Shown: one piece after another, positions 1,617 through 47,500 of the stretch | Layout of the letters: every line of letters begins with the position of its first letter | Position numbering within the stretch: position 1 is the stretch's first letter | Origin: a virus | Taxonomy: Duplodnaviria; Caudoviricetes | IMG/VR virus record: IMGVR_UViG_3300031760_000034 | Location: 10,980-74,979 of that record | DNA length: 64,000 nucleotides | Strand: one strand, 5' to 3' | The notes under the pieces: model-generated | Told to the model about the DNA's origin: nothing | What the model saw: the letters and a program-made list of their open reading frames with translations, nothing else | Database searches by the model: none | Program-made: the position numbers and the translations under genes

Positions 1617-3008
1617 ATGGCAAAAGATAAGAAAAAGAATCCTACGGTTGAAGCTCCTGTAGTGGAGAAGCCGGAGGAAAAAGCTCCTGAGACGAAAGTT
1701 GAGGAGACTAAGGTTATTAACGTAGCCACAAATAAGAAGGGCCTGTCGCAGAGCGATAAAGTTACTTACCTGAAAGAGCTCCGTCATCGTAGCGATGAGC
1801 TCAAGCAGGAAGATAATCCTCCTATGGAGATGATTAAGGGTTATGATATGATTCGTGACGCTGTCATCATAGACATTGCTGTAGGAGAGATTGCGTGCGG
1901 TGAGAGTGCAACTGGTCATATCCTGATTGCTAATGAGAATAACTATAAAGCTTTGCAGCTTGCAGCTATAACTCGTGGCGTCAAGATTCCCGAGTTTAAG
2001 GCTCTTCCTCGTCCTACAAAGTCTCAGCTTGAGGCTGTAGGTATCGCTGAAATTGGCGAGATTCGTGCACTGCCTATGAAGGACATTAAGCCTTCTAAGG
2101 AAGCTGTCGAGAAGAAGAAGGAAGAGAACAAGCTCAATGCCGAGGCAGAATCTGGTAAGAAAGAGTATCTGAACGATCACACTAAAATTGAGACTGACGA
2201 TCAGCTGAAGGAGGCCCTTGGGTTTCAACTCGCTAACAATAAAATCGCTAGTCCGCTTGATCGTATTATCACAGCAGCTCAGTTCTACCGTGCCTATCGT
2301 GAGGCTCTCGCCGAAAAGTCAGACAATCCGCAGGTTGAACTTGCTAAGATCCATGAGCTCACTCTCTCTGATCTCCTTCAGGAGATTAGCACTATGGTGC
2401 CCCCCAGCTTCACCGCTGAAGGATTCGGCCGCCTATTATGTAAGCGCATTGCCGATACTAAGAGCGTGGTACCAGCCTTTGAGATGCTCAAGCGTTGTGG
2501 CAAGAAGCGTAACGACAAGGAGTTCAAGTTCTCTGATGAGGAGATTGCAGCTCTGGTTCGCGTTCTCGTGGTTTGGAAGGCTTCTGCTGAAATAGCTAAT
2601 CATGGTGCAACAATCAAGCGTCTGTCTAAGGATGCTAAGAAGAATGCTGACGCCATAGATAAGGCTAACAACGATATCAAGGCAGAGCAAGAGTTGATGA
2701 ACTATGTTACCAATCCTTCTTATGATCTCGCGGATAATTTCATTGCTGCTTATAACAATAAGGAGAATGAGATGCACAACTCTGCAACTGAGATCTATAA
2801 GAGTATTGTTGAGACCTATTATAAGGACGTTAACGTTCCTGAGCTCGAATTCGAGACTATGTTGTTGAACGTTCAGCAGCATGTAGGTATCGACCTGAAT
2901 CTCTTCAATGAGGAGATGCTGAAACGTAGTGAGTATGACTCTAAGAATCTCATTGAGATTACTTCTGAGACTGACGAAGAACCTGAAGGTGAGTCAAAAA
3001 ACGCATAA
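1617..3008 (+). CDS. Hypothetical protein (463 aa, K/E-rich, high-expression codon bias)
   Basis: Long ORF, A-rich Bacteroidota-type initiation region, many C-ending codons. No motif recognised. Confidence 0.85.
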   Translation: MAKDKKKNPTVEAPVVEKPEEKAPETKVEETKVINVATNKKGLSQSDKVTYLKELRHRSDELKQEDNPPMEMIKGYDMIRDAVIIDIAVGEIACGESATGHILIANENNYKALQLAAITRGVKIPEFKALPRPTKSQLEAVGIAEIGEIRALPMKDIKPSKEAVEKKKEENKLNAEAESGKKEYLNDHTKIETDDQLKEALGFQLANNKIASPLDRIITAAQFYRAYREALAEKSDNPQVELAKIHELTLSDLLQEISTMVPPSFTAEGFGRLLCKRIADTKSVVPAFEMLKRCGKKRNDKEFKFSDEEIAALVRVLVVWKASAEIANHGATIKRLSKDAKKNADAIDKANNDIKAEQELMNYVTNPSYDLADNFIAAYNNKENEMHNSATEIYKSIVETYYKDVNVPELEFETMLLNVQQHVGIDLNLFNEEMLKRSEYDSKNLIEITSETDEEPEGESKNA

Positions 3009-3086
3009 CGGCTGCTAAGGAAACTGTTAGAAACTTAGTACGCCGAGTTTGCGGATATATTTTCGCATAATCTAACAATCAATGTT

Positions 3087-3587
3087 ATGAAGCGTTTTAC
3101 TACCTTTATGTGCTGTATTGCATTAATGATCGCAGGTGCTGGTCTTGCTATCAGTAATCTAAAGTCATTGCCACAAAATACAATTGCAGCGGCTACGCCC
3201 TATTACAGACCAACTTTGCCTGTAGTAGGTAATATATTACCTCCCGCATACCGGTGTGAACTGGGCGAGAAGGACTCTCATGCACGAGCAACTTCCTCCA
3301 AAGACTCTGTCAACATTATAGACAGTGTACGTTGGGTTACAAAGACAAAATGGAAGACTCGTTATCGTGATGTTGATCGTATCGCAACTCACGATACAGG
3401 AACTGACACAACGGCTACCACTCCAGATAGTTTGTTGCTAAGTCCTGAGTGTACTGATATGTTGGGTCGTGAGGAGTATCCCAAGGATGGTGTTGAGTCT
3501 TCTAAAGGCTCATCTATACAATTAACTGTCGACGGTGAAGTTGTATATTCCAAAAACGACAATCACTCCGCGGAGGGATGCCAGTGA
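3087..3587 (+). CDS. Hypothetical membrane-anchored or secreted protein
   Basis: N-terminal MKR followed by a hydrophobic helix. Its TGA lies inside the first hairpin of the structured island. Confidence 0.7.
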   Translation: MKRFTTFMCCIALMIAGAGLAISNLKSLPQNTIAAATPYYRPTLPVVGNILPPAYRCELGEKDSHARATSSKDSVNIIDSVRWVTKTKWKTRYRDVDRIATHDTGTDTTATTPDSLLLSPECTDMLGREEYPKDGVESSKGSSIQLTVDGEVVYSKNDNHSAEGCQ

Positions 3588-4690
3588 GGAATCACTGGCT
3601 TCCCAGCCTTGTGGCAATCCGGTCAGCGCATGTAAACAGTCTCATTAGCTGGCGCGAAATAGTACAACTTGATCCGAGAATATGTTAGCCTGCTCAACAG
3701 GTGAGAAACCCAAAAGGTAGGATGAAATGCTATGATGTTGTACGTACTATACAACTGAAAAGTTCATAGTAAGTGGGGAGAGCGTATGTATCAGACCCCA
3801 ACACATATATAAACCAGACAGGTTCTTTATGCCTGATCCAGACTTATGAAGTGTGGGATATATGTAAGGAAGACGCACAGAGTAAACCGAAAAAGAAATG
3901 CTACTGCTTGTTCATGCAATTCTTAAGTAGCTCTAAACTGAACCGTATCGATAAATCTACTATAAGCGATACATAATAGTAGAATCACGTTACACGAGTT
4001 GAACATACAGACAAGATGCCAAACCCTGTATGATGTATCGATTCACTATAGCTGTAGTCCAGTGTCACAGGTCTCCAAAACCTGCATTGAGGGACGAGTC
4101 TGAGTATATTAGCCTAGCAGAAGGCTTGACTGTCTGCGCTGTACCGTAACTACGGTCCTTGAAGAAATCCTTTCAGTTTCGATTACTGAATGACCACCTT
4201 TGAGGCTACGGTCCCACTGGGTCACTAGGGATGGGGTGCTGAGGAAAATATGATGAAGACAACCGATGAGCTTTTGGTCGTTTATTCGGTATATAAAAGA
4301 GAAAATGACCGCTAGGTAGATGGCGCTACCTATGGCGAAGTAGGGCATAGATGCTTGAAGGCCACGCGAGTGAAGTCCGCGAGTAAGACTATTCTAAAGT
4401 TACAAAAGACTATGGTAAGCGATAGTTAAGTAGTATAGATTGGAGATGTACCAGAGGAAATGCTGGAGTCGAAGGATGACAACCTGACAGTCAAATCCAA
4501 ATTCTTTCTTATAGTGAGATGGGTCGATTCGAAGCCTGTACAGCCAGTACAGAGAGAGATCGCTCACATTTTAATAAGGATAGTATATGCAATAAAATAG
4601 CACTGTTATACTATATCAGCGAGAGTAGTAAACTCGTGTGCGGTATAACTTGACTATGCACGGAAAATATACGAAAGTAGTTGAAATGTA
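3575..4690 (+). ncRNA. Candidate large structured non-coding RNA, module A
   Basis: No credible ORF in either code. Dense stems, e.g. GCCAGTGA-GGAA-TCACTGGC (3580-3599), pseudoknot 3945-3983, ACCGT/ACGGT (4143-4156), TTCAGT-TTCGATT-ACTGAA (4172-4190), TAGGTAG/CTACCTA (4313-4332), CTGTAC/GTACAG (4536-4552) inside GTGAG/CTCAC (4514-4567). GNRA and T-loop motifs read on the + strand. Confidence 0.6.
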
Positions 4691-4696
4691 ATTAAT

Positions 4697-4819
4697 ATGT
4701 TTAACAAAAAATTAGTGTCCCTCTATGAAATCTATTACGTTATGTTCAACGCCTTAGAAAAGTGTCCTTCTGTTGTATTGAAGAAACATGACCATTTTAG
4801 ACGTATGATAGAGAACTGA
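4697..4819 (+). CDS. Possible 40-aa small ORF (MFNKKLVSLYEIYYVMFNALEKCPSVVLKKHDHFRRMIEN)
   Basis: ATG-to-TGA ORF in the only AT-rich, weakly structured patch of the island. Below the ORF-track cutoff. Confidence 0.3.
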   Translation: MFNKKLVSLYEIYYVMFNALEKCPSVVLKKHDHFRRMIEN

Positions 4820-5365
4820 GTGCCAACCGTTCCTGAGAAGCAAATTTAGGACAAGATAGAAGGCCAGAAGCTTAGATCAGCAAGTCTAAGTGGTGCGTCC
4901 TGTCTATGAAGTCGATATACACGACAAACGGAGAAATCCAGATATAAGGCAGCATACTGTAAAGCGAAACCACTCCCTTGTCTCGGGTTGGGTAAAGCGA
5001 CCCACATGAACCCTATGTAGTGTAGGTAGTACTGTGGGAAACCGGCGAAGCAGCGCTTTATGTGGGTGACAAATCTAGGTGTATGAGGTGAAATTCCTCC
5101 AGTATTCGCGCACTATAAACAGAAGACAGCAGCAAAGCTGAATGTACAACAAAAAGCCGTTGGTCCACGATAGAGTTTTGGAGCTCTTAGACCGATTCGA
5201 TAATAAACAGGTTAGATTTAGCCTGAGAGGCCATAAGCTGATAAATTAAACGGCCAGATAATATTGATTGTTCTGACTGGCAAAACAAATAGAACTGGGG
5301 CAGCTGTGCCTAACTTGGTATCGCAAGACCGAGATACAACAGCAACGTAGTTGTCTTTTTATTTG
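4820..5365 (+). ncRNA. Candidate large structured non-coding RNA, module B
   Basis: CTTAGA/TCTAAG (4871-4890), GGGTTG/CGACCC (4985-5003), ACCCACAT/ATGTGGGT (5000-5067), GAGG-TGAAATT-CCTC (5085-5099), GCCGTT/AACGGC (5156-5254) enclosing further hairpins, GCAA-capped stem at about 5315-5332. Ends in a hairpin plus T-run (about 5335-5360). Confidence 0.6.
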
Positions 5366-5508
5366 GAAAATACGGAGATATACTACACTTTATTGATTTA
5401 TATTTCTTGGATCCATGAGCACTAGGCCGTGACCGTCGCAAGACGTAGCTACTCTGCCAACGAGCCCAAGTTATATTGTACAAAACTCAATATTGTGTTT
5501 CGTGTTTG

Positions 5509-5544
5509 GTGCTTGATTGCACAATGTGGCAATTAGCGCTTTTT
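5509..5544 (+). terminator. Putative intrinsic terminator closing the structured island
   Basis: GTGCT(T)GATTGC...GCAATTAGCGC stem of about 11 bp followed by TTTTT. Confidence 0.5.
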
Positions 5545-5856
5545 GAACCTTTATTATAAATGGGTATATATGTCCTACCGTTGGACTCCCGTTGTATTGA
5601 TTGAGCTTCACAACAGTTTACTCGGAGAGGAATATAAAGATACAACTATATAATGAAGAAAACGCGCTTCCCATAAGCATAGCACAACCAGAAAAGAAAC
5701 AAGATAGAAACACTATAAAACTTCCGATAATGCGGCACCTTTTCAAACAGGGATGCTAGCGTATCAAACTTTTTATGGCAACGTCCGAGCCGAGAGGACA
5801 TATGTGTAACCTTATGTCGTTGGTCAATCACTGACGATATCAAAAAGGACATAAGA

Positions 5857-6486
5857 ATGGCAGAAATTAATGTAAACAGTGCCGTAGATATGGGCACCGT
5901 GGCTCAGCATATGAGTCAAATTTCAAAACTTGGCGGCCTTTTGGGCGCTAAGTATTTTATGCTGGAAGGCAAAGACACGTGGACAGACTTTGATAAGAAG
6001 CAGCGTGAGCTCCAGCTCAACCCCAAATCACCGGAACTTATTCTCAATAAGTCTCCGCGTAAGTATGAGATTCGTGATTTTGATGTAATCGCACAGTCCA
6101 TTAAGACTAATCCCCTTACTGGCGTTACGTCTGTCGTATTTAACCCTGGTACCTCAACAGAGGCTGAAGCTTCGATTGTAGCTGGCAATGCTTTCGCTCC
6201 TATATCTGACGATGCTCTCGCAGCAGCGCTCACTCCTGGTGCAGCTAAGCATATCTTCGCTAACGGTCGTTCGCTGTTGAACAAGGTCAACATTGCTAAC
6301 CAGCAGAATGTTGATATGATCACAGCCCTGATCAAGATCTTGCAGGCTCAGAAGGATTCTATCATCTCTACGATGAAGGCCAATGAGAAGAAGGTCAATG
6401 ACTATGAGGAGAACTTGCTGAAGAGCAAGAAGGAGCTCGAGAATGCCGATAACGGCTCAGTTGAGGTTATTATAGGTCAGTCTTAA
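5857..6486 (+). CDS. Hypothetical protein with C-terminal coiled coil
   Basis: 209 aa, high-expression codon bias, TAA stop 2 nt before the next ATG. Confidence 0.85.
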   Translation: MAEINVNSAVDMGTVAQHMSQISKLGGLLGAKYFMLEGKDTWTDFDKKQRELQLNPKSPELILNKSPRKYEIRDFDVIAQSIKTNPLTGVTSVVFNPGTSTEAEASIVAGNAFAPISDDALAAALTPGAAKHIFANGRSLLNKVNIANQQNVDMITALIKILQAQKDSIISTMKANEKKVNDYEENLLKSKKELENADNGSVEVIIGQS

Positions 6487-36700: not shown

Positions 36701-39700
36701 TCAGGCTCTTGTATCTAAGGTTCAGATGTACTTGTAGCAGCCGTTTCTGTGGCTTCTGAGGCGTTTTCTGCAGGCTCCTGTACAGTTGTTCCAGGAGTAC
36801 TCGGTTCGGGCTCTGTAGGCGTTTCTACGGGCTCTGGAGACGGTTGTTCCGATGAGCTTTCTGATGATTCAGGAGCAGCTTCTTCGACTGGCTGCGTTTC
36901 TGTCTCCATGTCTTCTACAGACTGTTCTTCTTCTGATGTAGTGGCTTCAAATGTATCGTGTATCTGTTGTCTAAGCTCTTCATCAGACTTTACAGATGCT
37001 AAATACTTATCTATAAGGTCTAATGCTGACTTCTTTCTATCAGTAAAATCAGTCTGAGCATTCTTATAAGCTTCCTACATTTCAGGACTTGTGAGGAACT
37101 CCATACCAGAAACTTTACCACCAAGCAGCAAATATTGTATCGCGGTAGCCTCTTCTATATCTGTTATATAGTTTGCAGAATCGCGATACAGATCACGAAG
37201 TACATCATGTAATTTTTGATTTGGAATAGTCTTAAAATCATCTACAGTGGACGCATTCTTTATTGCCTTAAATCTTGATAACGACTGAAGTCTTTTGATC
37301 TGTCTGTTTACAGAACGAAGACGTCTCTTATCTGCAGTAGTAGGCTCTGCCGTCATCTCAAGTTGATCTCTAAGAGTAAATAATGCGTCAAGGGATGCTA
37401 TTTCTTTTATATAACTTACAAGATTTGGTATAGCTGCACGTATACCTTGCATATTATACAACGTTTCGCCTCCGAGGCCGCCTTTGATGGCACCGTCCCC
37501 TTCATGCTATACTTCAGTATCAATGAGATCAAACTCGTCATTAATCTTCAGAAGATCTCCGTAAGTCATTGTACCGAGAATCTCCTATATTCCTCTGCTC
37601 TCTTCTTGATTACCACTTACAAGACCGTTTACAAGAGAATTGGCACTCTTCTCAAGCTCATTCAAACCAGTAATACCTTGTTTAGCAAGATCTTTGGCCC
37701 ACATTATAAGGCCTACGTAGTTACCAAACTTCTTTGTACCTGGTTTTATATCAAGTTGCTTTGCGCCATCTTGAACATTCTTAGAATTTGCAGTATCAAA
37801 CACATCTTGATATGCCTTTCTCTGCTCTTGCACGTCTTCTGCAGTGAAGTTTAGCCCATCGGTACCACCATTTCGCTGTTCTGCAGTAGTTGCAACATTC
37901 TCCATAGCATCAAATGCCTTCATAATACGCTCATATTGCGTAGGAGACGTCTATGTTGCAAGATAAGAATTATTGGCAATAGTAGTTCTATCAGCCATCT
38001 TGTGCGCAAGCACATTGTTTACAACAAAGTTACTAGCTTTGAGATCTTGATATGCTCCAGTAATGGCATTGAACCCTTGTATAGTGGCAGTATGGCCAAA
38101 TCCACCCAAGAATCCGCCTTTCATGTTGGCTATAAGCTCTTTATCTGAAGTAGCGCCAAACATATCGCCAACGAAAGAATACGCAGCTCTAGAACCACCA
38201 GCAATATCGTTTATAATAGAGTCCATAAGAGTATCACTCTCACCAGAATAAGCACCATCTGCGTATTGCTTTCCGTTTAAATACTGCTTACCTTCTTCAA
38301 TTGCCTCAGACCAACCTGCTCCAAATACTTTAGATGCAAAATCTACAACATTTTTACCTATTGCTTTGGCTCCAAGAAGTTTCTTAGGCATTTGCTCTAT
38401 GATATCGGCTGCAAATCCTAAGCGCTTAGTAATACCTCTAACAGCACTTTTTGGTAATGCACGACCAACCGTCTTTAATCCAGCCTGCACAGCTTTTCCA
38501 GCAAGTACCAACGGGAATGCTACAGAACTAGCTACAGCTCCTCCTAAATCAGATTCTGCAAAGTCTTTGGCGAAGTTCTTAGTAGCCATCAATACTTTTC
38601 CGGCAGTAGGATGCTCGTGCATAAAGTTGTACATTCTCTTAAACCTAGAGGCCTTTGCTCCAGGAGTAATCATACTAGCTTTAGCCAATTTAGTGACAGG
38701 ACCTAAGAAGTTCAATCCTGCTTCGAATATCTCACTGCCTATTACAGCAGTCATATCATTCTTATACAGGTTGTTCAAACCATATGTAGCTACTTCTGCA
38801 ATGTCTTTGATCTTTTCTTTTGGTTCATAAATACCTGCTGCCATAGCATACATAAGTTCGTCGTCGGTAGCGTCCTTCTTACCAAGAGCTTTTCTACCCT
38901 CCTTCTGCCAGCGCTCGTATTCTCCGGCTTTGTTTAGCCTATCTATGAATAACTGCTGATAATTATCTCCAACTTCAGTGTCATTCTCATAATGACCTCC
39001 TATAACACCAAGACCTGTAGAAGCTAAGCCAGCTGCAGCTAAACCAGCAGCACCGCCTGTGCCCGCAGTAGCAGCCGCCATCGCAGCAAGACTAACAGCA
39101 GTAGAAGCAAGTTGATATCCTCCAAAAGACATAGAGGATCCTATAAGACCAGGCATCCCGTATATATACGTATCAGGATCAGTAAAGTTAAATTCCGTTA
39201 CAGCATCCGCCTTCTTTTTAAATTCTTCTGAAGGGTTATATCCACTAGACTTCCAACTCTTTAGCTCCCTTATGTTGTCTGCCATCCTATTTAATAGTTC
39301 CGGACGTTTTTTATCGAATTCCTCGCGTATTTGTCCAACAGCTCCGTCTATATTCTGCGAATATTGTTTAATCTAAGACTTTATTTCTAAAGGGAGATTA
39401 TTATATCCGTGTTTCGCTATAATTGCATCCAATGCTTCTAGGTTATACTTAGCATCTTTTTTACCTTGAGGAGCCCATCCGGTACCAGAATACATGGCCG
39501 CTTCATCAGTATTGCCAAAATAACTAGAAGCGTCACTAACTATCTTCTGTGTATTTTGGTTTTCAACCTACAATTTTTTTATCTCTTGAGATGTTTGATT
39601 AATTAAATCTTGCACATCTTTTGTTTTCTAGAGTTTATTAAGTTGTACAAGCTTATCAGATAAATCTATAATACGATTTATATTGCTTGTGTATCGTTGT

Positions 39701-40569
39701 AGGTCTGCACCTCTGCGCATTAACTCTTTGTATCTATTTATCTCACCAACATCAGATTTAATCTCCGATTCGTTTTTAAGAATAGCTCCTTGACCTAATG
39801 CATCTTTAGACCAGTTTGATTTTTGCTAAACTTGGGATTTAGCAATAAATGGGTCGTATGTAATGGCAGGTCTATTTCCAGCTATTGAAATGTTTTCAAA
39901 TAGTTTACCGGCCTCTGTAAGCATTCGCCCCCAAAAGTTAGCATGTTCTGGGTCTCCTTTTTCAAGCATTGCGTCTTTTACGTTATTTTGAGCAGACTCC
40001 AATTCGTCGTACTTTGCTATACTTAACGCAGACTCAATACCGTCTATCATTGTCCCAGTAGAGGATAGATCTAACTCGGTTTTCTCTATACCGTTTGGAT
40101 TAAATATAGTAAATTTAGTAGAGTCGTCTATTTTTCCAGTATCTGCCACAGACGTTTTCCCAGTAGGAGTAAACGATGGCTGTCTCTTCAACATGTTGGT
40201 AAGATACGACGGTTTTGCCTATTCGTAATCATCCTATCGTTTTAAGAACTATGGAGGTTCTGGCCCATCTAATTTTACTACAGGTTTATTATTAGTAGCC
40301 TTAACACTCTACTCAGTTTTATACTAATCATATCCTTCTCCACCAAACGGCTTAGGCCGGTACTCTTCTTTTTTTAGAGTATCGGCCAAGCGTTTATCGA
40401 GTTCTGCTTCCTCGTCGCGTCTCTTCTCGTCGGCTAGATCTCTTTCTCGACGCTGTCTAGCTGACTCTTCTTCATCGCGCTAAATCTGGTTTTGTATTAA
40501 TCTATTATATAACTGGGTAGATTCGTACACTCTTTGATTATTGCGCTGTATTAGTTTTTTTATATCCAT
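24712..40569 (-). CDS. Giant virion RNA polymerase polyprotein (5285 aa with TAG=Gln)
   Basis: The 23 track fragments share one frame and are joined by more than 50 in-frame TAGs with no TAA or TGA. Catalytic GADFDIDK (DFDID 29362-29376), DVADGAAY (30919-30942), FGIGPFALN; two HExxH motifs; SLOG-like domain at about 26280-26700. Confidence 0.92.
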
Positions 40570-40570
40570 A

Positions 40571-42220
40571 TTACCAGTCGTTTAAACTGTCTAATAAAAT
40601 TCCTTGTCCGGATCTAGTTTGTTCTGAAGCAAGTCCGGCTGCTTTATTTAAATATGAATCCATAATTGTCCACTGATTCATTGTTTCTGCACTAGGAATA
40701 GTACTATATCCATCAGGAGCAATTATAATATTTTGCTTATCTTTCTACTAAGATTTCATTTTTTCCGTTTCGGTAACCTTATACCAGTATGTATTATGGT
40801 TGGCACCTTCTCCGACTTCTACTTCTACAAATTGTTGATATTGTCCACTACTCATAGGAGCTGTATAAACTCTTCCTGTAGGAACCATACTTATTATAGC
40901 ACCTTCGCCGGATGGTTTTATCGTCTTTGGTTTATGTAAAGTCTTACTATTGCTATACAAAGTATTTGACGTCATTTCATCCTAGGTGTACAATTTATAT
41001 TTATCGTGTAACGGAACATATTGAACTCCTCCAGTAGCTGCGTTCTTAGCTCTAGAATGATCTCCGCCAAATCTAGATATCCAAGCGGACGTGGTTTCAG
41101 CATTATTCATACTGTAGAAATCGACAAATGCGTTAGAACGACTCTTTCTATCTAAGTCTTTATTTTTTGAAGCAAACCTTTTAGCAATTGTTAATCCCTC
41201 TCTTCCTGGGTCAGGAGATCCAGCCCATGATTGTATACCTCTACCGAGCAAAGTCAATCCGTAACTAGTAGCTTCTTTAGGACTACTTCCAGATCCACCT
41301 TTTCCGGCATTCTTCAAGCTCTGTAAAGCCATATCGTTCTTATGTCTGAGATTCTCTAATGCTACAGCATTTCTATGTTGCTGGTCAAGCTTAGCAAAAT
41401 CATCAGCATCTCTCTTAATAGATTTATATTCTCTATTTGCAGTAGCTATATCCTATTGCAACTGACGTTCAACATCATCTTTTGTATAAGGTAATCCTTT
41501 AGCAGCTACTTTTTGTTCTGCAAGATCTCTGTAATAATCTGCATATAAAGAACCTCTCCATCCAGGAGTTTCTCCAGCAGCTATATCAAGCAAATGTCTA
41601 TCTGCGAATCCTGTGTAATTATATCTTGGATCGTATTTCATATTAAAAGATTCGACATCAGCCTAATTAAGTATTTCTGGAGTTCTGTTATTATACCAAG
41701 ACTCTGTAGCTTCTTTAAGCGTTTTAGCTTCTGTAGGAGAAACTCTGTCCCAGATTTTACCTCCTCCTAACGTGTCCCAGTTAGCTAGGTTATAACCAAG
41801 ATATCTCTCTTCTAAGTCAGGATTATATAAACCTGCAGCTTCAAGCTTACCTCTATTCTTTAAATACTCTTCAGCATTCTTAGCACTACTCCTAAGTTTA
41901 GCTACTTGTCCAACAGGTATGTTATTAACCAACTATGCAACAATAGCTCTACCTTCAGCACTACGTAAAGGATCAATACCTCTAGCATATAGATTATTTA
42001 TAGTATCTCTTACTTTACCTGTAACATTCTAGTTATACCAATCTTGATCAGCTTGTATAGGTGTTACAAAATCTCCATATGCTGTATTGAAATCCTTTAT
42101 ACGCTACTCTCCTTTCTCGTACATATCTTTCGCAGCATTTATAGCCATCGCCATAATCTGCGTATCATATAGATCCCTAGTAGGAAGCTATATCCAATTA
42201 TCGTATGCGTATGTTGTCAT
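40571..42220 (-). CDS. Virion internal/cargo protein (549 aa with TAG=Gln)
   Basis: ATG 42220 (MTTYAYDNWIQLP...) to TAA 40571, one base from the RNAP start; only TAG interruptions. Confidence 0.8.
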
Positions 42221-44519
42221 AAGGCTTTATATATTTATACGCTGTATAAGATGTGGGAAATACAGGGGCTGTCAACGAATAATTATTGCCCCAAAACAAT
42301 TCTGGGTTTTTTAGTCTAGAATTGGCTTTGATTCCCCAATCTTTTTTCAGATTATAATTTCCAGAATACGTTGGACTTATAGAACTTGTAGTAGACTTCT
42401 TCTTAGTTTTATTAGTATCTGTAGTTTTTACCATAGACTAAATTTCATCTTTTTTTAAGTCCATATCCTACTGATACAAATTCATCATTCTATCAAATTG
42501 ATTCTACTTAAACGCATTCTGCCAATAACTACCAACAGAGTCGATCATATTACGCATACCCATTTGCATACCTTGCTGTCTGGCAGCATGTGCTTTAGCA
42601 TACATATCCTCATCCCATTGGTAAGCTGCCATCTAAGCTTGTCTATCAGCCTAACCTGCATTTAGTGCAGCTGTTGCATACGCAGATTTATATTGATTTC
42701 TTTGATTCTACAAACTCGCTAACATGTTTGCAATATTCTATTGTGTATTGTGCAAAGCCGCAAGTCTGGATAATGTTCTCTGACCAGTACTAAGACCTCC
42801 AGACATATCAATAGCTTTATTACTTCTAGCCTCTGCGTTTCTGAGTTGTGTTGTTATAGGATATGGATTTATATCCAGCGAAGCTAATGTAGTAAGAGCC
42901 TCTTGCTCATACGGGTTAGCTCTATATGAATTTGTCTTTTTTGGAGTACTATTCTTAGCTTCTAGCCACTAAGACAGTCCTCCAAGAGCACCAATTCCGG
43001 ACGTTATTGCATTTCCTAACCATCCGTTATCAAATTTTGGCAATCTTCCATTTTTTGCCGTTTCAAGTCTATTCTTTAACATTTCTCTAGTTCCTTCATA
43101 GTCTCCTGTCATAGCATAATAATCAGAAAGACCGTCTTTATTTGTTACTACCATATCTCCAGGATTCAGATATGCGTATTCTGTATCCTTATTATTCTTT
43201 TTACCAGGAATTCTGTATGCAGATCCTGTGTTGACGTTTACTATTTCCTCACCACTTGATACTTTTGCGTTTGGTTTAATATTTATAGGTCCAAATGCAC
43301 TGAATGTGGGTTTGCCTGTCTGTGAATATACAGGTAATTTTATAAACGGTGTATCAACTCCATTGTTATAGCGAGGTAATTTACCTTCTTTAGCGCCATA
43401 TAAATACTAAGATTCAGAATCACCATACTCTTTTGCGTTCTGAATTTGTATAGCTTTAGTTTGGGCGCTAAATCTAGAAGAATCCTGCAACGCATTGATT
43501 TTAGCATTTTGTTTAGCAAGCATTTCCCTGTACCTACGTTTTCTAGATGCACCACCAAATAATCCAACTCCAAGTCCAACAATAGCTCCAATTGCAGTTC
43601 CCCATCCTGGCAATATAGCTGTACCAAGAGCAGCACCGCTACCTACGGCCTTAAGGGTATTTCCTGTATTCTCCTTCTTAACTTTGTCCAACTCGTCGCC
43701 TACATTAATCGTATTGGGAGACTCATAACCAACCCCTCCAATAGACATGTTAGACGTACCTTGTCTATTTGCAATTTCATCCCCAGTTTCATTTACAGAG
43801 AATGAGTTGATGGCATCTCCTGCGAACTAAACGCCACTTGTTACAACACTTCCAATGCCAGACCAATTAAATCCTTTTCCACCAGCAGCCCCAGACCCGA
43901 GTCTTTTTGCACCTCCTGAAGTAGACCCTATAGAATTCTACAATATCTAATTACTTTTATTCAAATCCATAGGTTTGCCACTGCCGATTGAATTTGCAAG
44001 AGCTCCTATCTGACCAATAGCTGCGGCTCGCTATGAACCACTGCTCCAATCTATTGTTGGAGTAAACGTTGGTTGTTTGTAATTACTTCCTCCAAATCCA
44101 TTCTGATCAAGTAACTACGACCCGTTAGGAGAAGTAAGAGAGCTTTTTATTGTACTAAGTGATGTATTAAAAGACGGACTAGATGAAGATTGTATAAAGC
44201 TCGGCGCTGTAGTAAGACTGGGGCCAGAAGAAATATTAGTTACAGATGGCATGGATGTACTACCTATACTAGTTGTTTCCGGCGTTGTTACTGAGTTATT
44301 AAACTACTAATTGCCCCATCCTCCGTAGCTATCTGCTAAAGATGTATTACTAGTACTGGACGACGTTGATGACTGCTACTATCCAGGTATACCGTTCTCA
44401 AATTTTGGCAGATTGTTTATCTATTTATATCCTACAGTTTTGCTACTATCAGAAGATCCTATAGAAGAATATACACTTCCTCCAGCATTTTTAAAACTTT
44501 TTAATCCAGTTAACTCCAT
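42198..44519 (-). CDS. Virion internal/cargo protein (773 aa with TAG=Gln), S/T/G-rich, with three LP[KR][FY]xxG motifs and glycine-rich hydrophobic segments
   Basis: ATG 44519 to TAA 42198 with only TAG interruptions. GAALGTAILPGWGTAIGAIVGLG is a membrane-like segment. Confidence 0.8.
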
Positions 44520-47500
44520 GACATTCTATATTTAGTTACTACATATTGCAATGAGAAGTCAGTAGAGTTACTGTTAGAAGATATTTCACATTGCATTGTT
44601 TTACCTCGCATTCTATCACCATAAGAACTATCTGCGTTCCTTGGGATATCTAAGCGGAAATCGTATTCTCTATTTGTTATTTGATTACCGTGAGCAGTAC
44701 TATGTTGCTTAAGGGGGGTATAGAAATCAAATGTTATGTTATTAAGATTATCTCCTCCGTAGAACCTACCACCAAACGTAGATATGTCAAACACCTTTGG
44801 ATATTGTACATTATTGTTCACAACATATCGTATAGAAGGAGTGGCATTTGAATCAAACAACTTAGCATTACCTGGTTGAACAACTGACATTCTGTATATA
44901 TAATCCCCACTATTGTAGTATAATCTATCATCTACTACAGCTCTGTATGTAGGATTGAACGTATATATCGATGTAAAACACTATGTTTGCTCATTATATA
45001 CTATAGAACCATTGTTGACAACACTGGCTATCATCTCGTTGAATTTATTATCGTAACTTAAGCTTGGGTGAGATACTGATGAATTGTCGTTTATATACTT
45101 TCTTACATTCTTTATCTTTGTAAGAGGCCCTAACTCCATTCCTCCAGTATATGATAATATCTCTCTATTATGGCCATCCCAGAAATATTGAGTGCTGTTG
45201 GACTATGTCTCTGCTTCATATTGGTTCGGCAGCATTCCATATAACGTAGATATATAATCATAGCGCTGTAATACATCTCCGGTACCAAGTATAATTTGGT
45301 TGTCTGACGCATCATTTAATACAGTACGCTCATTAATACTAAGTATACCGGTGGCATTATTCTACCAGAATAACATAGTATCTTTAAACAACCTCATATT
45401 AGTAATACACCCAAATCTACTATCTACATCGAGGAAATCCATGGCCTTAAAATTCAGCCAATTATCTATATGTTCGCCGTTTGTTTTAGGTTGAGAATAG
45501 TGTACTCTAGTATCACAGTTTGCAGTGTCTATACTGGTATATTTTATAGCGCTGTACATCATTGCGTTTGTTGGAGCACTGTAAGCAGTATTATATAAAT
45601 ATGAGTCAAGATTTTGTGTAAAGCCGTTTGTTATAGCAGCCGCTTTATCTTGTATATAATATCTATACTAACTGTCTATTTTATTGTATGTGTCACCCCA
45701 AGTAGCAGAAAGATCTATATCAGATTCAACAGGTATCATATATACACCAGCCTGTCTTACTCCAGCTGGCATGTTTGGTTCATACCAAGCATGAGATGCA
45801 TTGTATACAAAAAGGCCTGGATAGCAGTCTCCGTCGAATACTTGTATAACATCACCCTCTTTAGCAATGTTACCAGCAGACATATAAGAACTGGTTTTTA
45901 TACTACCTTCTCCACCATACGGAACCATTCCCTTCTTTCTAAGTCTCAACAAAGGATACGTCATAGTAGGCATTGTGGCATCAGAATTTGCTGTAAAACC
46001 TACACCACTACTAGATGTATTATAAGCCCACGATGATATAACCATTGACTTATCGAGATGCATGATCATACACTTTCCTGTACTGCCAGTAGGATAAAAC
46101 ACAGGATATCTTTTTCTAATACCTCTACTCTCTCCGCCTGTTCTAGGTGGAATAGAATCTTCGTTCTTCATATGTCCTACAGGATCTGCTACTCCTAATA
46201 ATAACGGAGAACTCCAGCATGAATATGTTGTACCAGATCCAACAGGAACCACATCGTTTGCCCAGTTTGTTTTATTTTCGTCAGATCCAACAAAATTGTC
46301 AAACGCGGGTACATTAGAATATCCTACATCTTTTATAGAAAACTTTCGATCGTCTACACTTTCTTGATTAATAAATGCAGCCAACCCTACATAAGCGGAT
46401 ATTGTATCTCTAGTTGCGTTTAATGATTCTTCTCCTATTAAACCAAACTGATCATTTATCAAAGGAGAATCATGTAAACTTAAATTTATCCACGCACTAG
46501 CTAATGTAAAGCACCATACATCCTAAACGTTCTATAATGAATCTTGGTCTAGTTTATCGCTTATAAACGGAGGCATGAATTTTAAATCAATAAAAAATCC
46601 TCCATTTGTTAAGTCAGCTCCTTGTGTACCTATACTCAATGCAGCATACGGTGGTTCAACTGTAGATCCTGTAAGAGCTACCGGTTTATTATTATCTACC
46701 CAGCTTCTTACCCCGTAACGATCACCGTTTATTACATACTTCATAGCAATGTGACTATGCATGTTGTATTTTACGTCTAAGAATAGGTTGTTTTTATCGG
46801 ACTTTATTATATTCTTAATATCGTCAGATTGATATACGTACTCCGGAGTAGAGAACATTAAGTAATCATTGTCACTTATTGCCCTATTGGACATAATCCA
46901 TTCATCGTCTTCTTCAGCCTCACTACTATCCGCATATAGCAATGTAGTAGTCATATATCCAGTTGGGCATATATATTGTGTCTTCTCGTATTCCTAATCA
47001 CTAGATTGCTTCTTATGATATATACGATATGGGAACCCTCCGATACCTTCCGTGATAGTTATTCTATCAGATTGTGTTCTTGGTACACGAACTATTTCAA
47101 CAGCCACAACACCTTCTGGTAACGACTTTATTTTAAAGTCTATACCTATTTGGTGTGTCATATAGAAGAATGGAGACTGTACTCCAGTATAGTTTCTTTC
47201 TACTGTTGAGAATGTTGGATATAACACACGTCCTCTAGCAAATTGATATCTGTATAAAAGACTGCTGTTTGTAGTATGTAGGACAGGACTCATAATATCG
47301 GCTATCCATTTTACAGACGACTTATTTCCACGCTCATCATAAAATACAGCACCGTATCTATATACTTCTCCTTGTCTTAATGAACATAATTGCTCAGTAG
47401 TCTGTTGTAATTCTGTAGAAGAATTAAATATATACTTGCGATTTTCTCTATCTATTCCTACGGGGCGTACATTATATGTCCACTCTAGATATCTACCAGA

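Follow-up and report, generated by a model that had tools for sequence, protein, structure and literature searches.

The stretch of DNA analysed here (the window, 64,000 nt; coordinates are positions in it and + is the strand as given) belongs to a viral record of 74,979 bp, estimated to be 74% complete, and its gene order is that of Suoliviridae crAss-like phages. A gene for a sigma factor of the extracytoplasmic function (ECF) type at 574-1137 on the + strand (Pfam Sigma70_r2/r4) is followed on the same strand by genes for proteins of 128, 463 and 166 amino acids (aa), by a region devoid of open reading frames (ORFs), and then by genes for proteins of 209, 204 and 183 aa. The ORF-free region extends from the stop codon of the 166-aa gene at 3587 to the ATG of the 209-aa gene at 5857. 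A previous reading of the window from its sequence only had proposed a large structured RNA between 3575 and 5545. The reading that we favour, with a probability of roughly 60%, is that 3575-5856 constitutes a previously undescribed, very large (~2.2 kb) structured non-coding RNA region of the + strand found across the Suoliviridae.

A non-coding region conserved across the Suoliviridae

Between 3588 and 5856 no ORF above ~94 codons exists under genetic code table 11, and no convincing frame is opened by reading TAG as glutamine, TGA as tryptophan or TAA as glutamine (four genetic codes in all). Codon periodicity was assessed in gene-wise alignments with four close relatives. For the most part the flanking genes have an excess of third-position changes (p as low as 2e-18), although the 166-aa gene falls short of significance in the two nearest relatives. 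The gap has no such excess (p 0.53-0.76) despite offering more aligned positions than the flanking genes, and periodicity is absent from every 150-nt window of it. In most comparisons the gap is less diverged than the flanking genes; at the locus of one relative (L012; L-numbers are labels of relatives' loci) the mismatch rate is 0.129 in the gap vs 0.287, 0.159 and 0.380 in three flanking genes. The alignments establish that the region is non-coding and under purifying selection, in agreement with the sequence-only reading, which had seen no credible protein gene in 3588-5856 even with TAG read as glutamine.

Protein coding hidden in small ORFs, antisense ORFs, heavy recoding or frameshifting has some basis on the minus strand, where open frames of at least 70 codons overlap 4050-4350 and 4950-5250 in 50-80% of the sequences and where three GenBank records of relatives annotate a coding sequence (CDS) in the gap (L006:4760-5266, L117:4207-4689 and L122:11832-12269, all on the - strand). 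We find such coding hardly credible, because the annotated antisense ORF that was tested (L006) lacks codon periodicity (p 0.17-0.8) as the gap itself does, one annotated antisense ORF is interrupted by in-frame stops, and the protein similarity of the antisense ORFs merely tracks nucleotide islands. The antisense strand is poor in stops, and its frames stay open, because the + strand is purine-rich. Judged from these sequences, the antisense 'hypothetical proteins' annotated in the gap look like annotation artefacts.

An unannotated gap of 1.85-2.5 kb lies at the same syntenic site in every relative examined. The order sigma factor, 128 aa, 463 aa, 166 aa, gap, 209 aa recurs in more than 100 crAss-like contigs, and the gap is found in four subfamilies of the Suoliviridae, namely Oafivirinae, Loutivirinae, Boorivirinae (cr1_1) and Uncouvirinae (cr125_1). 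The nearest named relatives of the window are Buhlduvirus, Chuhaivirus, Cacepaovirus, Bohxovirus, Burzaovirus and Buchavirus. For comparison we assembled 44 non-redundant full-length copies, 46-87% identical to the window and 2.05-2.34 kb long. Conservation extends from end to end of the 2.2-kb region and is highest at 3700-3800, 3920-4010, 4280-4310, 4820-4850, 5060-5120 and 5840-5856. The end at 5545 given by the sequence-only reading has to be moved, since both the conservation profile and the covariation at the 3' end carry the structured conserved region to 5856.

Two probes were used to follow the region through other genomes. A covariance model of the 5' domain, R1, gave one match per genome, always co-oriented with the operon, at all syntenic loci including those of Burzaovirus, Buchavirus and Bohxovirus. 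It reached 63.7 bits in the Boorivirinae genome; in Uncouvirinae cr125_1 it gave 18.5 bits (E 0.024), which is non-significant and lies partly over an annotated CDS, and this was not counted as a match. A 20-nt degenerate motif derived from the most conserved stretch (window position 5100) and used as contig probe was present in 95 IMG/VR viral contigs and nine genome-collection contigs. Phage contigs with the motif, several of them ~100 kb long, lie inside bins of bacterial metagenome-assembled genomes, assigned to Segatella copri (L108, L116), Prevotellaceae (L112), Bacteroidaceae (L115) and Sphaerochaeta (L113). This binning is either a hint to a Prevotella/Segatella host or a binning error.

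Covarying helices and their strand

We scanned the 44-sequence alignment for helices of at least 4 bp with at least 85% canonical pairing and a span of up to 120 nt. The scan returned 84 local helices vs 1-6 in ten column-permuted controls, and 13 helices with at least 20 doubly compensated cells vs 0-1 in the controls. RNAalifold was run separately on the clade of the window (15 sequences) and on a second clade, ~51% identical (16 sequences). The two folds have 137 of 337 pairs in common within 2 nt, where circular shifts give an expectation of 13 and a maximum of 34, and 26 hairpins appear independently in both. That the region holds many helices, as read by eye from the single sequence, is borne out by these counts, and the syntenic region of relatives proved both conserved and covarying. 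A global RNAalifold run on the MAFFT alignment gave a patchy result and was not used as a model.

For four segments, compensatory changes were counted with slid controls and 500 shuffles. Paired cells amounted to 90.8% in 3612-3812 (32-44% when slid), 85.5% in 4262-4570 (37-45%), 90.3% in 4690-5135 (36-50%) and 86.3% in 5555-5860 (35-48%). These percentages are inflated, since in three of the four segments the structure came in whole or in part from the alignment on which it was tested. The compensatory counts are not affected by this. They were 222, 137, 78 and 157 compensated cells, respectively, vs 64±8, 51.5±6.4, 29±4 and 51.5±6.2 after shuffling, and in each segment the observed count was reached by 0 of 500 shuffles. 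The recurrent pattern is one of short helices, variable in sequence, with near-invariant loops and joining strands such as CYCAUUA, CAAAAGGUAGGAUGAAAU, UACCGUU, GUGCCAACCGUU (4823-4834) and CCAGUAUUCGYGCACUAUAAA (5099-5119). Most long inverted repeats of the window are not kept in relatives (I1, I3, I5, I6, I9-I14, I19, I20 and I22-I25), among them the pair CCCACA/TGTGGG at 5000-5010/5057-5067. I21 (4085-4095/4717-4727) was inconsistent on inspection and was discarded.

A scan of the reverse complement gave 70 helices vs 84 on the + strand, of which 7 vs 13 were strongly covarying. The 5' domain has 105 G-U cells vs 34 A-C cells, and internal G-U pairs are kept in 33-34 of 42 sequences. The + orientation, which agrees with the direction of the operon and had been read from the single sequence, is upheld by these counts, and from the alignments an RNA of the + strand has good support in the 5' domain and is likely elsewhere in the region.

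The strand counts also bear on whether the hairpins form in DNA, as part of a replication origin or of a packaging or recombination site. The region does lie upstream of the replication module, and the count over the whole region is not decisive: G-U and A-C stand at 136 vs 107 (p 0.07) in a strand-symmetric count and at 685 vs 781 under a looser helix definition. A DNA element is nonetheless very improbable in our judgement. Read from the opposite strand, the conserved internal G-U pairs of the 5' domain would turn into A-C mismatches, and covarying helices are more numerous on + than on -. Iterons and direct repeats are missing (no repeat families beyond pairs of chance size), as are an AT-rich tract (GC 0.34-0.48) and a turn in GC skew, the cumulative skew being monotonic. 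Origins, moreover, do not typically contain covarying hairpins by the dozen, each different and with conserved loops.

Known RNA families and the form of the transcript

Searching the whole window against Rfam 15 gave 0 matches at gathering score, and 3300-6100 gave 0 matches at E<=10 to any family, including GOLLD, ROOL, OLE, HEARO, raiA, rRNA and introns; the syntenic gap of five diverse relatives had no match at E<=1. The sequence-only reading had been unable to assign the region to a known RNA, and cmscan agrees with it even at E 10. Its comparison with the GOLLD/ROOL/OLE class stands at the level of the class, that of large structured phage RNAs, and fails for family membership. Like GOLLD (RF01998), ROOL and OLE the region is long and ORF-free, with many covarying helices and conserved loops, and like many GOLLD and ROOL copies it is borne by phages; unlike them it has no cmscan match and no tRNA genes nearby in the window. 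GOLLD, ROOL and OLE are roughly 600-800 nt in size, and a region of ~2.2 kb is several times as long as GOLLD or ROOL.

The 16S and 23S rRNAs resemble the region in size, in their many short helices and in their conserved single-stranded motifs, and to our knowledge rRNAs are the only common bacterial or phage-associated RNAs of such size and build. The region differs from them in having no Rfam rRNA match at any threshold and in being confined to one phage family. Group I and group II introns, which are frequent in Suoliviridae genes (PMC7886860), are likewise structured RNAs of 0.3-2.5 kb in crAss-like genomes; unlike them the region has no Rfam intron match and no intron ORF, and it occupies a fixed site in every genome vs sporadic insertion. 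A group I or group II intron was rejected here, as the flanking ORFs are complete, separate and conserved and no host gene is split. Hatchet, RAGATH-22 and permuted transfer-messenger RNA (tmRNA) share genomes, strand and early region with the 2.2-kb region, but they are 100-350 nt long and lie upstream of the sigma gene, none of them overlapping the gap. Full-text literature searches found no description of a non-coding RNA region in crAss-like phages. Neither the main paper comparing crAss-like genomes (PMC7886860) nor a 2023 review, according to which no Suoliviridae phage has been cultured (PMC10136315), mentions the region, and a large survey of structured RNAs from the human microbiome offers no link to it and does not mention crAss-like phages (PMC8040213).

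Most likely the region comprises one very large non-coding RNA or a few RNA domains, with a 3' end that doubles as translational operator of the next gene. The region would be transcribed with the regulatory/replication operon of the + strand, in which the 166-aa gene precedes and the 209-aa gene follows it, and the transcript would fold into several domains built from short helices, dozens in all. Invariant loops and junctions are probable tertiary contacts or protein-binding sites. Its bulk would be an RNA in its own right, serving as a stable scaffold or as component of a ribonucleoprotein (RNP) during infection, and the last ~50 nt fold over the ribosome-binding region of the 209-aa gene and probably tune its translation. 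Transcription, the production of a single molecule rather than of several, a trans-acting role and protein partners are what we infer from this pattern. One or two large RNAs made early, as the sequence-only reading had it, are plausible; a role as scaffold, decoy or ribozyme is speculation.

Several results, besides the region-wide strand counts given above, weigh against this interpretation or against a single global fold. Folding energies of single sequences are unexceptional (z = -1.6, -0.9 and -3.4 for three pieces vs -1.8 for a coding control), and the case therefore rests on covariation and not on thermodynamics; the region deserves to be called densely structured by comparative covariation and not from the single sequence. 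All helices common to the two clade folds are local (span <=55 nt), and the long-range helices of the conserved core consist mostly of invariant pairs or of one-sided G-C/G-U changes. In place of the two pseudoknots seen in the single sequence, which were not confirmed, there is one loop-loop candidate, in which loop UUUUGGAG (5177-5185) is complementary to loop CUCCAAAA (4072-4080). Complementarity within a genome is 3.93 vs 3.68 across genomes (4 of 2000 permutations); this contact is tentative and weak. Proteins of the neighbouring genes provide no functional clue; nothing usable was matched in Pfam, PHROGs or the ESM Atlas, or by Foldseek/PDB or VIA-align. No terminator-like site was found in 3000-6300 and sigma-70 promoters are not enriched there; neither a Bacteroidetes -7 box nor T5 runs nor a hairpin with U-tract is conserved among the 44 sequences, inside the region or at its ends. 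The hairpin and U-tract ends of the sequence-only reading are not confirmed by this result. Transcription probably enters the region from upstream and runs through it, in which case any separate RNA would have to be excised by processing. The sequence occurs in six metatranscriptome runs from bovine gut or rumen. In four studies, RNA-library contigs extend over the gap as well as the flanking genes, which attests presence and not strand, ends or abundance, and these contigs may be DNA carry-over, the flanks being covered too. Contig depth, which cannot rank regions, is highest at 4801-5200 in X2 and X16 and in the flanks in X18 and X19; reads of related strains pile up at 4801-5200 because this bin is also the most conserved.

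The short span of the common helices would suit a string of independent structured elements within a polycistronic transcript, made up of small RNAs, processing sites and stability or protein-binding hairpins that act locally. Such a string would also fit the variable segment 3800-3935 and the clade-specific insertions, which part the conserved blocks, and the presence of Hatchet, RAGATH-22 and tmRNA in the same early region of relatives. We consider it rather unlikely, because the total length is tightly kept and the 2.2 kb are conserved without a break, promoters or terminators conserved inside the region were not found, no block matches a known small RNA, and a candidate helix at 4698-4703/5116-5121, in which pairing is kept through G-C, G-U and A-U although most of its pairs are invariant, may close a core of 420 nt.

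The lack of transcription signals of its own, together with its co-orientation and embedding in the operon, would fit a giant cis-acting leader, a 5' untranslated region of the 209-aa and replication genes that would act in antitermination, transcript stability or translational control and have no function in trans. The region is indeed contiguous with a covarying structure at the ribosome-binding region and start codon of the gene at 5857, in which repeated GAUAU segments offer alternative pairings. But known leaders need far less than 2.2 kb of sequence, with its invariant loops and its conserved helices by the dozen, and over 700 nt separate the most conserved core (4690-5135) from the start codon, which makes a mere leader improbable.

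A stronger version of the preferred reading is that 3575-5856 is one ~2.2-kb RNA with a single rRNA-sized fold, a catalytic or scaffolding RNP needed by all Suoliviridae in infection. We put this forward as a tentative possibility. If true, it would be the largest phage-encoded non-ribosomal structured RNA known, and a role such as the takeover of host translation or RNA metabolism would fit the tmRNA and suppressor tRNAs of these genomes.

In this phage family, abundant in gut and rumen, ~2% of each genome is devoted to the conserved RNA-like region, and standard annotation leaves it blank or places spurious antisense ORFs there. Large structured RNAs without an assigned function are rare, and time and again such RNAs have opened up new biochemistry. 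For covariation modelling, over 100 natural variants of the sequence already exist, and in vitro transcription, chemical probing and cryo-EM could be applied to the region at once. The phage family also gains a sensitive nucleotide marker, and RefSeq gene calls are corrected.

Elements of the region and their surroundings

All elements described here lie on the + strand. The first is a 13-bp hairpin at 3575-3604 (inverted repeat I8, 92% complementary), within which the stop codon of the 166-aa gene falls. It covaries within the clade of the window (CAGUGA/UCACUG becomes GUAUGA/UCAUAC in L009), and the GGAA tetraloop noted at 3588 indeed caps it (3588-3591). This hairpin is possibly a 5' boundary or a processing element.

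The 5' domain (3612-3812) is supported by covariation, by its G-U excess and by the R1 model. Its helices are 3626-3629/3652-3655, 3637-3640/3648-3651, 3672-3675/3720-3723, 3689-3692/3698-3701, 3728-3735/3764-3771 and 3774-3778/3796-3800; changes on both sides occur in 26 of 29 pairs, and the near-invariant loops and joiners are CYCAUUA, GAGAAUAUGUUAG, CAAAAGGUAGGAUGAAAU and AGCGUUGUAUCA. Between two conserved helices of this domain, six loci (L022, L032, L034, L042, L056 and L094) carry an extra segment of ~45 nt (alignment A2 columns 57-106); this insert, found in part of one clade, has the look of an expansion segment in the alignment. A variable expansion segment follows at 3800-3935, where conservation in the alignment drops to ~0.34. 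It is found in the window and a few close relatives and is ~100 nt shorter in most others.

A hairpin cluster occupies 3943-4190, with helices 3964-3978/4029-4043, 4068-4072/4080-4084 (loop CUCCAAAA), 4118-4121/4133-4136 and 4172-4176/4186-4190 (loop UUCGAUU). It has hairpins common to the clades and compensated-cell counts of 52 and 62, and conserved complementarity is 7.8 vs 4.8 in controls. Of the T-loop-like hairpins noticed in the single sequence, those with UUCGAUU (4172-4190) and UGAAAUU (5084-5099) are conserved. The middle domain (4262-4570), supported by its covariation counts, contains helices 4275-4283/4303-4311, 4313-4318/4326-4331, 4365-4368/4378-4381, 4389-4392/4412-4415, 4477-4480/4490-4493, 4519-4530/4556-4567 and 4536-4541/4547-4552. 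In the most conserved core (4690-5135), likewise supported by covariation counts, we found helices 4721-4726/4808-4813, 4870-4874/4887-4891, 5061-5069/5106-5114 and 5085-5088/5096-5099; the two longer strings quoted above with their coordinates are invariant in it.

Downstream of the core, a hairpin at 5173-5192 (inverted repeat I2) carries loop UUUUGGAG. The stretch 5410-5522 is common to the folds of clades A and B and consists of an extended hairpin (5410-5465), whose cap is the GCAA tetraloop previously noted (5438-5441), and of a hairpin 5509-5512/5519-5522 with 74 compensated cells. The 3' domain (5555-5800), in which covariation was counted jointly with 5811-5856, includes helices 5562-5564/5588-5590, 5572-5575/5583-5586 (loop UACCGUU), 5591-5597/5640-5646, 5666-5668/5681-5683 and 5783-5786/5796-5799. 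The last structure (5811-5856), known from alignment and covariation, abuts the AUG of the 209-aa gene at 5857. An outer helix (5811-5818/5848-5855) with changes on both sides in 7 of 8 pairs encloses an inner hairpin (5823-5826/5832-5835) with such changes in 4 of 4 pairs, and the conserved AUCAAAAAGGA sits in the internal loop. From its position and covariation, 5811-5855 is probably a translation-control element over the ribosome-binding region of the 209-aa gene.

Both flanking genes are on the + strand. The upstream one (3087-3587) was taken from the ORF list and has syntenic homologues in relatives; its 166-aa product has no match in Pfam or PHROG. The downstream one (5857-6486) is supported by the ORF list, by homologues in relatives and by a predicted structure of its 209-aa product, a small beta domain with a C-terminal helix of ~55 residues at a predicted local distance difference test score (pLDDT) of 82. 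The 463-aa protein (1617-3008) is predicted to be all-alpha (pLDDT 79). Neither of these two predicted folds had a match in PDB searches.

ARAGORN found no tRNA or tmRNA in the whole window. Several relatives have a permuted tmRNA upstream of the sigma-factor gene (L013:12532-12871 and L026:9431-9611, both on the - strand; annotated in L002, L005 and L120). The early region of Culoivirus cr1_1 (NC_055873, L121), again upstream of the sigma gene, contains an Rfam Hatchet ribozyme (77.5 bits) and RAGATH-22 (124.8 bits), with RNA coordinates 1231-1330, 2128-2262 and 3515-3728, as well as RAGATH-9 and RAGATH-20 below threshold. These phages bear many small structured RNAs in addition to the 2-kb region. 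Finally, the minus-strand late region of the window (39285-45668 and other stretches) shows wide gaps between ORFs under table 11, which fits the stop-codon reassignment reported for the family.

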